The position numbers were made by a program. A stretch of DNA of 64,000 bases, taken from a virus. Taxonomy: Duplodnaviria > Heunggongvirae > Uroviricota > Caudoviricetes. The DNA lies in the IMG/VR virus record IMGVR_UViG_2718218360_000002; one strand, 5' to 3'. The first letter of the stretch is position 1; each line of letters begins with the position of its first letter. Below are positions 51,001 to 54,000 of this stretch, one piece after another.

Positions 51001-54000
51001 ATTTTTAGCAGAGCCTGAATGCCATAATCACGGCTCCCGGAGTTGGCCGTCAGTGGGTGACACTGGCGGCTTTTTGTTTTCCTTTACTTTCATTTTCTGT
51101 CGGCGGTGACGGAGACATACATCAGATGGAAAAAATCACAACAGGTGTGTCATACACCACGTCAGCGGTAGGGACGGGATACTGGTTACTGCAACTGCTG
51201 GACAAAGTCTCTCCGTCCCAGTGGGTGGCAATAGGTGTACTGGGGAGTCTGCTGTTTGGCCTGCTGACGTATCTGACAAATCTTTATTTCAAGATTAAAG
51301 AAGATAAGCGTAAGGCTGCGAGAGGTGAATAATGTCGCCGTCATTACGCAAGGCTGTTGCAGCTGCTATTGGTGGTGGGGCTGTTGCCATAGCGTCTGTG
51401 CTCATCACTGGTCCAGGTGGTAACGATGGTCTGGAAGGTGTCAGCCACATACCATACAAAGATATCGTTGGCGTATGGACTGTATGTCACGGACACACCG
51501 GAAAAGACATCATGCCCGGTAAAACGTATACCGAAGCAGAATGCAAAGCCCTCCTGAATAAAGACCTTGCCACGGTCGCCAGACAAATAAACCCGTACAT
51601 CAACGTCGATATACCGGAAACAACGCGCGGCGCTCTTTACTCGTTCGTTTACAACGTGGGCGCTGGCAATTTCAGAACATCGACGCTTCTTCGCAAAATA
51701 AACCAGGGCGATATCAAAGGCGCATGTGATCAGCTACGGCGCTGGACATACGCTGGCGGTAAGCAATGGAAAGGGCTGATGACTCGCCGCGAGATTGAGC
51801 GTGAAGTCTGTTTGTGGGGGCAACAATGAGCAGGGTAACCGTTATTATCTCCGCTCTGGTTATCTGCATTATCGCCTGCCTGTCATGGGCTGTTAATCAT
51901 TACCGCGATAACGCCATTACCTACAAAGCGCAACGCGATAAAAAAGCCAGTGAGCTGAAGCTGGCGAACGTGACAATTACTGATATGCAGGTACGCCAGC
52001 GTGATGTCGCTGCACTTGATGCCAGATACTCGAGGGAATTAGCCGATGCGAGAGCTGAAAATGAAACTCTGCGTGCTGATGTTGCCGCTGGTCGTAAGCG
52101 CCTGCGCATCAACGCCAACTGTCCAGGCTCCTTGCGTAAAGCCCCCATCACCTCCGGCGTGGATAATGCAACCGGTCCCCGACTGGCAGAAGCCGCTGAA
52201 CGGGATTATTTCATCCTCAGAGAACGGCTGATGGCAATGCAGAAGCAACTGGAAGGAGCACAGGAATATATCCGTACCCAGTGTATACCGTGATGTTTTG
52301 TTATGAAGGTGTTACTGGTAACGTTAAGGTAATTTAACAAAGAGTCAGTTCCGGACTTTATAGTGTGCTCAGTTCATGGACAAAAACGATTTCTGTGATA
52401 AATATTTTGAATATTATTTACAGGTAAATGGAGTGGGGCGCATGGATAGAAATATTACAATAGAGTATGAAGTATATGCCCGTATTGTATGGGCAGAGAA
52501 GGCAAAAACACGGTAATTCCGTGTGTTGCCATGATACCTGATTGGCAGAATAGTTGTTTGGTTTTGAGTATATAGTCAGCGTTTTTTGTTCAGTAATTGC
52601 CCCCTCAAAAAATAATAAAATAAGGTGATTATTTTTGTTTATTATTTAGTTTTTTTGTGTGTTATTTTATTGTTTTTGCGTGGTTTGTTTTTTATTGTTA
52701 TTTCATTAAGGGAAGGTAAATTCAGGATGGCAGTCTGTAGATAATCGGAGGTCACTTATGCTACATGATCACGTGGCAGAATGTCTGGAGAAAAAAGGAC
52801 TGTACCGGAGAGCAGCTGAACGATGGGCAAAAGTGATGGTACAGCTAAGTGATGACCAGAAAAGAAAAGTGGCGGCACAGAAACGAGCAGAGTGTTTGCG
52901 TAAGGCGCGCCGGACTCCGGTTTCACCGGTGAACCTGACCGAAATAAAACAAGCGGTCAACAGACTACATTCTGAGTTGGGAATGGGATTTGAAGAGCGG
53001 CGGGTATTCCGACGATATAAAGGGACAGGAGAACAGAATACGTCCGGAAACGCGCGGTCAAAAAAATGCTAAAAAATATCTGAGAGAGTTATTGCCTGTT
53101 ACCATAAGAAAAAGCGACTTTAGTGGTCGCTTTTTGTGTCATATATAAGTCGTTTAAGTAAACCTGTCTGAACAGGTGCTCTGGTCGTGTTTGTCTTTGT
53201 TGGGTACAAATTGAGAATATTTTTCATTAATTAATCTTCTTCTGCAGGCTTCAATAACCCACGCTGAAAAATTACCTGAACCTTTCTGGTCAAGAGCGAT
53301 GTTAATTTGTTCAATCATCTGGTTTGGAAATCGGATGTTGCGGGTTGTTGTTCTGCGGGTCCGGTTTTTCGGTGACATTTTCTTTCCTCTGGTGACAAGC
53401 TATATGGCGAGGATTTTACATGGCCGTGCTTCGTACGTTACCGGGCAGAATCAAAACTCTGAATACCCGGCGGGTGAATGTCCTGAAGGGGGAACAGCGT
53501 CGGGTCAGTGGCAGTGCCCGGGTTTCCCTCAAGCGTCGTATCTGGCTGAGGGATGCCGGACAGTGCTGTCTCTGTGGGCGTGTGGTTGACCTTTGTGACA
53601 GTGAACTCGATCACCGCATTGCACTTCAGTTCGGTGGTGGTAATGAGGAGACGAATCTCTGGACGCTCTGTACCGAATGCCATCGCCAGAAGTCAGTCAG
53701 TGAAACGGCGAGTGGTATGCCGGACCCGACGCTGCCGGAGGTGTCCGGAGGTCATGGCAGGGCAGACGATATCATCGGACTGTGACCCGCCCCGGGGGGG
53801 GATCATCCGGCGAAAAAACGATCGCCCCGGACACCGCCCCCCGTCTCATGCAGAGAAAAAATTCCTGTTTCAGGCCAGTTAACATGTTAACTGGCTGCCC
53901 GGGCATTTTTTCGGTTTTTATCTTTATTATTCAGTTTGTTGTGCGAAAAAAATGTTAACTGGCTTTTTCAGCAAATGTTAACCAGGCAGCAGTTAACATT

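Follow-up and report, generated by a model that had tools for sequence, protein, structure and literature searches.

In phage 21, the holin gene S has a dual start, from which the antiholin S21-71 and the holin S21-68 are both made (PMC9636201). S21-68 has two transmembrane domains (TMDs), with the first (TMD1) weakly hydrophobic, of SAR-like character, and preceded by one basic residue, a glycine zipper in the second (TMD2) and a charged C-terminus (PMC9025707). Together with R of phage 933W, the phage 21 endolysin, R21, is a reference member, released by the S21-68 pinholin, of the signal-anchor-release (SAR) endolysins, which are recognized by a few basic residues followed by a weakly hydrophobic TMD and by an E-X8-D-X5-T motif (PMC9239132); export by the Sec system and release upon depolarization are known for R21 and S21-68 (PMC9239132, PMC9636201). 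In an embedded pair of spanin genes, the gene for the outer-membrane subunit (o-spanin) lies in another frame within that for the inner-membrane subunit (i-spanin), starting at ~0.4-0.5 of the length (L) of the latter (PMC6139136), and the o-spanin carries the consensus lipobox [LVI][ASTVI][GAS]C (PMC6139136). Here, we compare with these systems a cassette of four genes, S, R, Rz and Rz1, at positions 51126-52293 (+) of a 64,000-nucleotide stretch of viral DNA (IMG/VR record IMGVR_UViG_2718218360_000002; Caudoviricetes), referred to as the window; all positions are those of the whole window.

The comparisons at sequence level lead us to identify the cassette, with a probability of about 0.93, as the lysis module of an Escherichia coli O157:H7 lambdoid prophage, encoding a pinholin, a SAR endolysin and a two-component spanin of the phage 21 kind. 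Four intact open reading frames (ORFs) were read in this region, each of the four proteins gave a full-length match in Pfam, far over the curated cut-offs, and a PHROGs search returned a holin, an endolysin and, twice, an Rz-like spanin. Many complete E. coli O157:H7 chromosomes carry the 2.5 kb around the cassette (50600-53100) at 100% identity. When phage records were searched by megablast, phage 434 (OL657226.1) came first, at 92.5% over 1272/1401 query bases, with phage 21 at 86%; the records of both phages carry detailed annotation with literature references, and in both the four genes have the same order and the same overlaps (class II holin, SAR endolysin, i-spanin and o-spanin in the terms of the phage 434 record).

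An earlier note on this DNA had described a phage-21-type lysis cassette, with an S21-like holin of 68 residues and an endolysin bearing a Gly/Ala-rich N-terminal SAR segment. The boundaries that it gave are exact, the descriptions of the holin and of the endolysin segment agree with the results given below, and the interpretation as a whole is supported by near-identity to characterized proteins. The label is right in kind, with the refinement that the nearest named relative for S and R is phage 434 and that Rz and Rz1 belong to a different allele. The claim that all four genes overlap at their start and stop codons holds for S and R, which share one nucleotide at TAATG (the last base of the S stop codon TAA also opens the R start codon ATG), and for R and Rz, which share four at ATGA (containing both the Rz start codon and the R stop codon TGA), but not for Rz1, which is embedded in Rz.

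Two other start codons were tried and rejected, namely GTG 51057 for S (giving a 91-residue ORF) and GTG 51814 for Rz, because the homologous starts annotated in phages 21 and 434 correspond to ATG 51126 and ATG 51826, each with a Shine-Dalgarno sequence. An NCBIfam scan of the four cassette proteins gave no match at the curated cut-off, with sub-threshold lysozyme-domain matches for R only, and no ORF on the minus strand of the cassette exceeds 80 residues or has supporting evidence.

The holin S and the endolysin R

S matches the family of the bacteriophage P21 holin S (PF04971) over profile positions 1-63 of 64, with an E-value of 1.2e-32 and a score of 112.1 bits, compared with a cut-off of 26, and falls in the holin group phrog_9876 of PHROGs. 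The protein is identical at all 68 positions to S of phage 434, which is annotated as a pinholin, and at 51 of 68 (75%) to S21-68; it is also nearly identical to the holin of the Stx-phage 933W, at 65/68 according to the phage 434 record. The presence of two TMDs was judged on composition only: the N-terminus, MEKIT, places one basic residue (K3) ahead of a first uncharged run at residues 4-25, in which 11 of 22 residues are G, A, S or T and the mean Kyte-Doolittle (KD) value is 0.75, and a second uncharged run at residues 28-55, with a mean KD of 1.21, is followed by a charged C-terminus. Between S and its phage 21 counterpart, both TMDs are conserved, as are the positions of the zipper and the charge of the C-terminus; G37, S41 and G45, which correspond to the TMD2 zipper, are identical to S21-68 in the alignment. 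The comparisons support the assignment of S as an S21-type pinholin, for which a depolarizing function is predicted, through channels of nanometre scale that would not pass a cytoplasmic endolysin.

The start of the gene, a point absent from the earlier note, differs from that in phage 21. The likely ribosome-binding site of S is GGAG at 51111-51114, and the codons before the ATG are ATA CAT CAG, with no in-frame second start nearby; therefore, no longer form of the S21-71 antiholin type is possible from this single start. Phage 21, by comparison, has the dual start ATG AAA TCA ATG, which is particular to its gene and does not define pinholins as a class. The context ATA CAT CAG ATG, and the terminator upstream of it, are the same in phage 434. 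Phage 434 has this form, in a curated record with one holin product; the single-start S allele is a known natural variant and not a new kind of holin.

R matches the phage lysozyme family (PF00959) with an E-value of 8.3e-46 and a score of 155.8 bits, and is identical to R21 at 156/165 residues (94.5%) and to R of phage 434 at 162/165 (98%), both of which are annotated as 'SAR endolysin'. Within residues 1-31, there are three differences only from R21 (S2/P, V18/I and G29/S). A basic pair, R6-K7, precedes an uncharged run at residues 8-31, with 15 G, A, S or T residues out of 24 and a mean KD of 1.40, the corresponding values for R21 being 15/24 and 1.39. A pattern search placed the E-X8-D-X5-T triad at E35, D44 and T50; both the triad and the SAR segment of phage 21 R are conserved. 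We infer that R would be exported by the Sec system, remain uncleaved and be released upon depolarization.

Solved structures exist for proteins 95%-identical to R. The best match in the PDB is 4zpu, the endolysin RrrD of the E. coli K-12 prophage DLP12 (E = 2.7e-107, residues 1-165), and the other matches are 3hde (E = 1.9e-106, residues 1-165) and 3hdf (E = 1.8e-91); the last two, titled only 'Lysozyme' in the PDB table, are presumably structures of R21. The likeness to DLP12, which carries essD, rrrD and rzpD/rzoD, extends to the RefSeq name for the R of the window, 'lysozyme RrrD'. DLP12 is a degraded remnant, however, whereas the prophage around the window cassette is nearly complete, its head and tail genes following the cassette, and the comparison with DLP12 covered R only.

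The embedded spanin genes

Rz matches the Rz lysis protein family (PF03245; E = 2e-46, 157.8 bits) between its residues 29 and 153, covering profile positions 1-125 of 126, and is placed in the Rz-like spanin group phrog_13 (E = 1e-77). The Pfam match takes in the part of Rz where the coiled-coil domains of this family would be expected. An N-terminal hydrophobic run, residues 4-24 with a mean KD of 2.41, follows R3, and the two cysteines, Cys99 and Cys153, are predicted to be periplasmic. Rz1 matches the Rz1 lipoprotein precursor family (PF06085; E = 4.1e-19, 68.5 bits) and phrog_3198. Its start, ATG 52046, is homologous to the Rz1 starts annotated in phages 21 and 434 and has GAGGG 9 nucleotides upstream.

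The gene for Rz1 begins 220 nucleotides past the start of Rz, which puts it in the +1 frame, and ends 62 nucleotides before the Rz stop codon, so that it spans 0.47-0.87 of the length of Rz and lies wholly inside it, as the earlier note had stated. The lipoprotein signal, whose absence that note had named as evidence to the contrary, is present, although the lipobox is to be read in its canonical four-residue form, VSAC (residues 17-20, with Cys20 as the lipidated residue), without the additional V of the 'VVSAC' given previously. The residue next to the cysteine is Ala; a residue other than Asp at this position is the sorting rule for the outer membrane. The description of Rz1 as proline-rich also stands, the mature protein of 42 residues having 9 Pro, which include the motif PPSPP, and a second cysteine, Cys30. 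In their embedding, the start at 0.47 L, the lipobox and the cysteines, which would serve for intermolecular disulfides, Rz and Rz1 agree with the published description of spanins (PMC6139136).

The same embedded +1 architecture is found in lambda, together with the lipoprotein signal and a proline-rich region followed by AWIMQP...DW, and the cysteines are at equivalent positions (Rz 99 and ~152, Rz1 ~29; PMC6139136). There are differences: the linker from the lipidated to the second cysteine is one residue longer in the window Rz1, and lambda has PPPPP where the window has PPSPP, the only change in this stretch being Ser in place of lambda P34, a position reported to be permissive (PMC6139136). 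The partners also differ, since in lambda the holin is canonical (S105) and the endolysin is a soluble transglycosylase, in place of a pinholin and a SAR lysozyme.

Compared with S and R, the two spanin subunits are less close to those of the named phages. Rz is identical at 115/155 residues to its phage 434 counterpart and at 114/155 to that of phage 21 (about 74%), and Rz1 at 40/61 to each (about 66%). The C-terminus of Rz is two residues longer than in either phage, and the DNA match to phage 434 stops at window position 52271, 22 bases short of the Rz stop codon. Because the protein identities split in this way, with S and R near to phage 434 and Rz and Rz1 not, the cassette is, on the evidence of these alignments, a mosaic of the phage 434 allele of S and R with a different allele, of the same family, of Rz and Rz1. 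In the RefSeq annotation of the same DNA, made with PGAP, Rz appears only as 'lysis protein' and the embedded Rz1 has no entry.

Start-codon alleles and exchange of partners among relatives

The relatives of the cassette were taken as 80 IMG/VR loci (L005-L084) whose holin is at least 93% identical. Two holin alleles occur among them, switching exactly at the start codon. In 22 of the 80 loci, the sequence is ATA CAT CAG ATG, with a single start, as in the window; the other 58 have ATG TAC/GAC/AAC CAG ATG, giving an in-frame Met three codons upstream (M-Y/D/N-Q-M), without the Lys that is present in S21-71. In these 58, the holin lies in a 933W-like upstream context.

The partner of the holin also varies. 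At some loci, its gene runs directly, through TAATG, into that of an R21-type endolysin with 90% or more identity to R, while at others 0.4-1.3 kb of extra ORFs are followed by an endolysin of 177 residues that is 31-34% identical to R (MSRKLRYGLSAAVLALIAAGASAPE...). Most relatives with the 933W-like context pair the holin with this 177-residue endolysin, often with extra ORFs between S and R. The products of the extra ORFs seen between S and the endolysin gene in many loci begin MKKKYELVVKGINNYPDK... and MNHEEMNQRF.... Across the 80 loci, identity to the window proteins ranges from 50 to 100% for Rz and from 48 to 100% for Rz1, and a SASA esterase, at 50-100% identity, is found in many of the IMG/VR relatives. 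Two loci, L007 and L011, reproduce the arrangement of the window in full, down to the PerC-family gene. This exchange of modules follows the usual pattern of lambdoid mosaicism, in which the joints fall between genes.

Prophage context and the proposed lysis pathway

The layout of the window was taken from the RefSeq annotation of strain FRIK2455, to which window positions 30000-54000 are 100% identical, among other strains, and from those of its features that could be matched exactly to window sequence (Table 1). Some match related to the 2.5-kb query 50600-53100 was found in 5181 of 5426 E. coli genomes, the O157:H7 genomes having 14-20 such matches each. The cassette belongs to the second of two lambdoid prophages, in which the integrase is followed by dicB, hokD, RusA, Q, the methyltransferase, the SASA esterase, the cassette, the PerC-family gene, HNH, terminase and capsid genes; this arrangement is probably that of Sp9/Sp10 of strain Sakai. 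Several insertion sequence elements lie among the effector genes downstream of the first prophage.

Table 1. Features of the 64,000-nucleotide window, with the lysis cassette given first. The strand is shown where it was recorded.
Feature	Position	Strand	Description
S	51126-51332	+	Class II holin, predicted S21 pinholin type, 68 residues; ATG 51126, TAA 51330-51332
R	51332-51829	+	Predicted SAR endolysin, phage lysozyme (T4-lysozyme-like) family, 165 residues; ATG 51332, TGA 51827-51829
Rz	51826-52293	+	Predicted i-spanin (inner-membrane subunit), 155 residues; ATG 51826, TGA 52291-52293
Rz1	52046-52231	+	Predicted o-spanin (outer-membrane lipoprotein), 61-residue precursor; 56 residues from internal ATG 52061
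Intrinsic-terminator-like hairpin and T tract	51045-51081	+	11-bp stem, 5-nucleotide loop; 45 nucleotides upstream of S
Head and tail genes of upstream lambdoid prophage	first 19 kb		Annotation
nleA	19819-21144	-	Type III effector; annotation
nleG	27450-28097	-	Type III effector; annotation
espM1	28281-28871	+	Type III effector; annotation
Truncated ompW fragment	32156-32281		Adjoins integrase of the cassette-bearing prophage
Integrase of second lambdoid prophage	32327-33457	-	Annotation
Q antiterminator	45882-46703		Annotation
DNA methyltransferase	47278-48336		Annotation
STnc100	48416-48616	+	Rfam match, 150 bits
AgvB	48619-48680	-	Rfam match, anti-GcvB sponge, 96.5 bits
SASA-family esterase	48828-50678		616 residues; DUF1737, SASA (sialate O-acetylesterase) and DUF6645; directly upstream of the cassette
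PerC-family (Pch-like) regulator gene	52758-53072		PF06069, E = 4e-44
HNH	53420-53785		Annotation

On its upstream side, the cassette differs in setting from that of phage 21, which stands just past pR', tR' and two transfer RNA (tRNA) genes, whereas the window cassette is ~4.4 kb downstream of Q, after the methyltransferase, two small RNA loci and the esterase. A tRNA scan of the window found none, in contrast to the two tRNA genes upstream of S in phage 21. The two small RNA loci, STnc100 and AgvB, stand immediately next to each other in the interval from the methyltransferase gene to the esterase gene, with scores far above the Rfam gathering scores; at gathering thresholds over 45500-53500 they were the only Rfam matches, 2.4 kb upstream of the cassette, and none fell in or beside it. 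The SASA esterase gene is also the upstream neighbour of the cassette in phage 434, 98% identical over the part compared, and an upstream SASA (NanS-p-like) esterase gene is also a feature of the 933W-type Stx phages, whose NanS-p esterases the window protein presumably resembles. In Stx phages, the stx genes lie between Q and the esterase gene. For the window, by contrast, the annotation has no stx gene in this interval; the only sizeable coding gene annotated there is that of the DNA methyltransferase, in addition to a hypothetical ORF of 65 residues and a small pseudogene fragment. Downstream, phage 434 has bor on the opposite strand after Rz, whereas the window has an AT-rich stretch and the PerC-family gene; the stretch 52300-52760 (30-36% GC) sits where phages 21 and 434 carry the minus-strand bor. 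The AT-rich stretch and PerC-family gene together (52294-53072) look like a moron insertion.

Transcription of the cassette is best considered from the Q gene onwards. With overlapping structures counted once, seven + strand terminator-like hairpins lie downstream of Q, which ends at 46703, and upstream of S, at 46737, 46786, 47114, 48585, 48705, 50983 and 51045. The last of these has a folding energy, as RNA, of -20.5 kcal/mol (z = -4.0 versus shuffled sequences), and the phage 434 record marks its identical sequence as a terminator. Because of these seven hairpins, it seems most likely that, like its counterparts in other lambdoid phages, the cassette would be expressed only from the Q-antiterminated late transcript. 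A promoter-like match at 51896-51868 (-) was taken as chance, the count for the region being 6 against 4.0 ± 2.1 in shuffled sequences. The CII-binding consensus TTGYN6TTGY, which in phage 434 occurs on the minus strand inside Rz, was not found in the cassette; in the window as a whole, it occurs 6 times against 12.4 expected, which is uninformative.

The published pinholin pathway (PMC9636201, PMC9239132, PMC6139136) is the basis of the mechanism that we propose, in which the membrane topology, channel size, expression and order of events are those that we infer for the proteins of the window. Late transcription would start downstream of Q, and the Q-modified polymerase would read through several terminators, including that at 51045-51081, so that S, R, Rz and Rz1 are made as one translationally coupled unit. 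S, of 68 residues and with two transmembrane helices, would build up in the inner membrane, while R would be exported by Sec and held there, tethered and inactive, by its Gly/Ala-rich N-terminal segment. The weakly hydrophobic first helix of S would leave the bilayer, and the second would form small channels that collapse the proton-motive force at a set time. Depolarization would then free the segment of R, which would refold to an active lysozyme and cut the peptidoglycan. Beforehand, Rz, through its N-terminal helix in the inner membrane, and Rz1, through its lipid in the outer membrane, would have formed a complex spanning the periplasm, and, once the wall is gone, this complex would disrupt the outer membrane.

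Several points weigh against the view of the cassette as a working phage-21-kind lysis module. That R is not cleaved stands on its identity to R21; without the dual start, the timing control of phage 21 is not transferable unchanged; and prophage induction and transcription of the late operon are presumed. The prophage itself is damaged: an internal stop codon splits the DUF968 gene into two ORFs (44449-44955 and 44971-45498), several ORFs take the place of an unbroken portal region past the capsid gene (58500-61087), and both are flagged as pseudogenes by RefSeq in a near-identical genome. Because of these two lesions, the prophage may be unable to make particles. An intact cassette in a defective prophage might no longer release particles of its own phage; it could persist in cryptic form or have been co-opted by the host, as a parallel to essD-rrrD-rzpD/rzoD of the DLP12 remnant, or could serve lysis when activated in trans by another resident lambdoid phage, a reading that would be compatible with the same biochemical mechanism and that we consider unlikely, though deserving of some weight. 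Besides the interrupted genes, it is favoured by the 14-20 related matches per O157:H7 genome, which imply that trans-acting Q proteins are plentiful, and by RrrD of DLP12 being the closest solved structure to R. On the other side, none of the four lysis ORFs is interrupted, nor are Q or the genes for terminase and capsid, and many strains share all of these without change; in addition, the portal region of FRIK2455 differs from that of the window by small indels, so that some of its frameshifts may be assembly errors.

The two remaining alternatives concern the proteins, and both appear very improbable. The N-terminus of R might be a cleavable Sec signal peptide, cut for example after A19-I20-A21, with R a soluble periplasmic lysozyme throughout, and this part of the protein does contain a small-x-small motif resembling a signal peptidase I site. 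The same motif, however, occurs in R21 (AIAIAS), which serves in the literature as a reference SAR endolysin released by S21-68 (PMC9239132), and a free, active lysozyme in the periplasm alongside a holin would lyse the cell without timing. Furthermore, the chain of 3hde, which has 165 residues and the same length and sequence as phage 21 R21, aligns with R over residues 1-165, indicating that the N-terminal segment was part of the crystallized protein. Nor do we give more credence to S being a canonical large-hole holin, with the Gly/Ala-rich N-terminus of R irrelevant to release. Both kinds are found among class II holins with two TMDs, and hole size cannot be read from the sequence alone, but S shares 75% of its residues with S21-68, including conserved zipper positions in TMD2 and a weakly hydrophobic TMD1, and its translation is coupled to that of a SAR endolysin, as is usual for pinholins; S21-68 itself forms heptameric channels of ~2 nm and is no substitute for lambda S105 when lambda R is the endolysin (PMC9636201).

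A pinholin, SAR endolysin and two-component spanin thus remain our preferred reading, and a cassette of this description is already known and well described: S and R match the phage 434 proteins exactly or almost so, and many sequenced O157:H7 genomes contain the same DNA. The finding has little significance beyond correct annotation, to which the embedded Rz1 is worth adding. More speculatively, and in our judgement with rather poor odds, the ATA allele may produce only the lethal 68-residue pinholin, with lysis timed without a holin-encoded brake, or the brake may come from an unrecognized antiholin, not of the dual-start type, elsewhere; there might perhaps also be host phenotypes, such as release of toxin or vesicles, brought about through the Q of another resident phage. 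If true, the novelty would be one of physiology and not of kind, because phage 434 shares the allele and its annotation already has a single holin product. The single-start holin is a natural 'antiholin-free' variant, which could be compared with its dual-start siblings for the timing of lysis.

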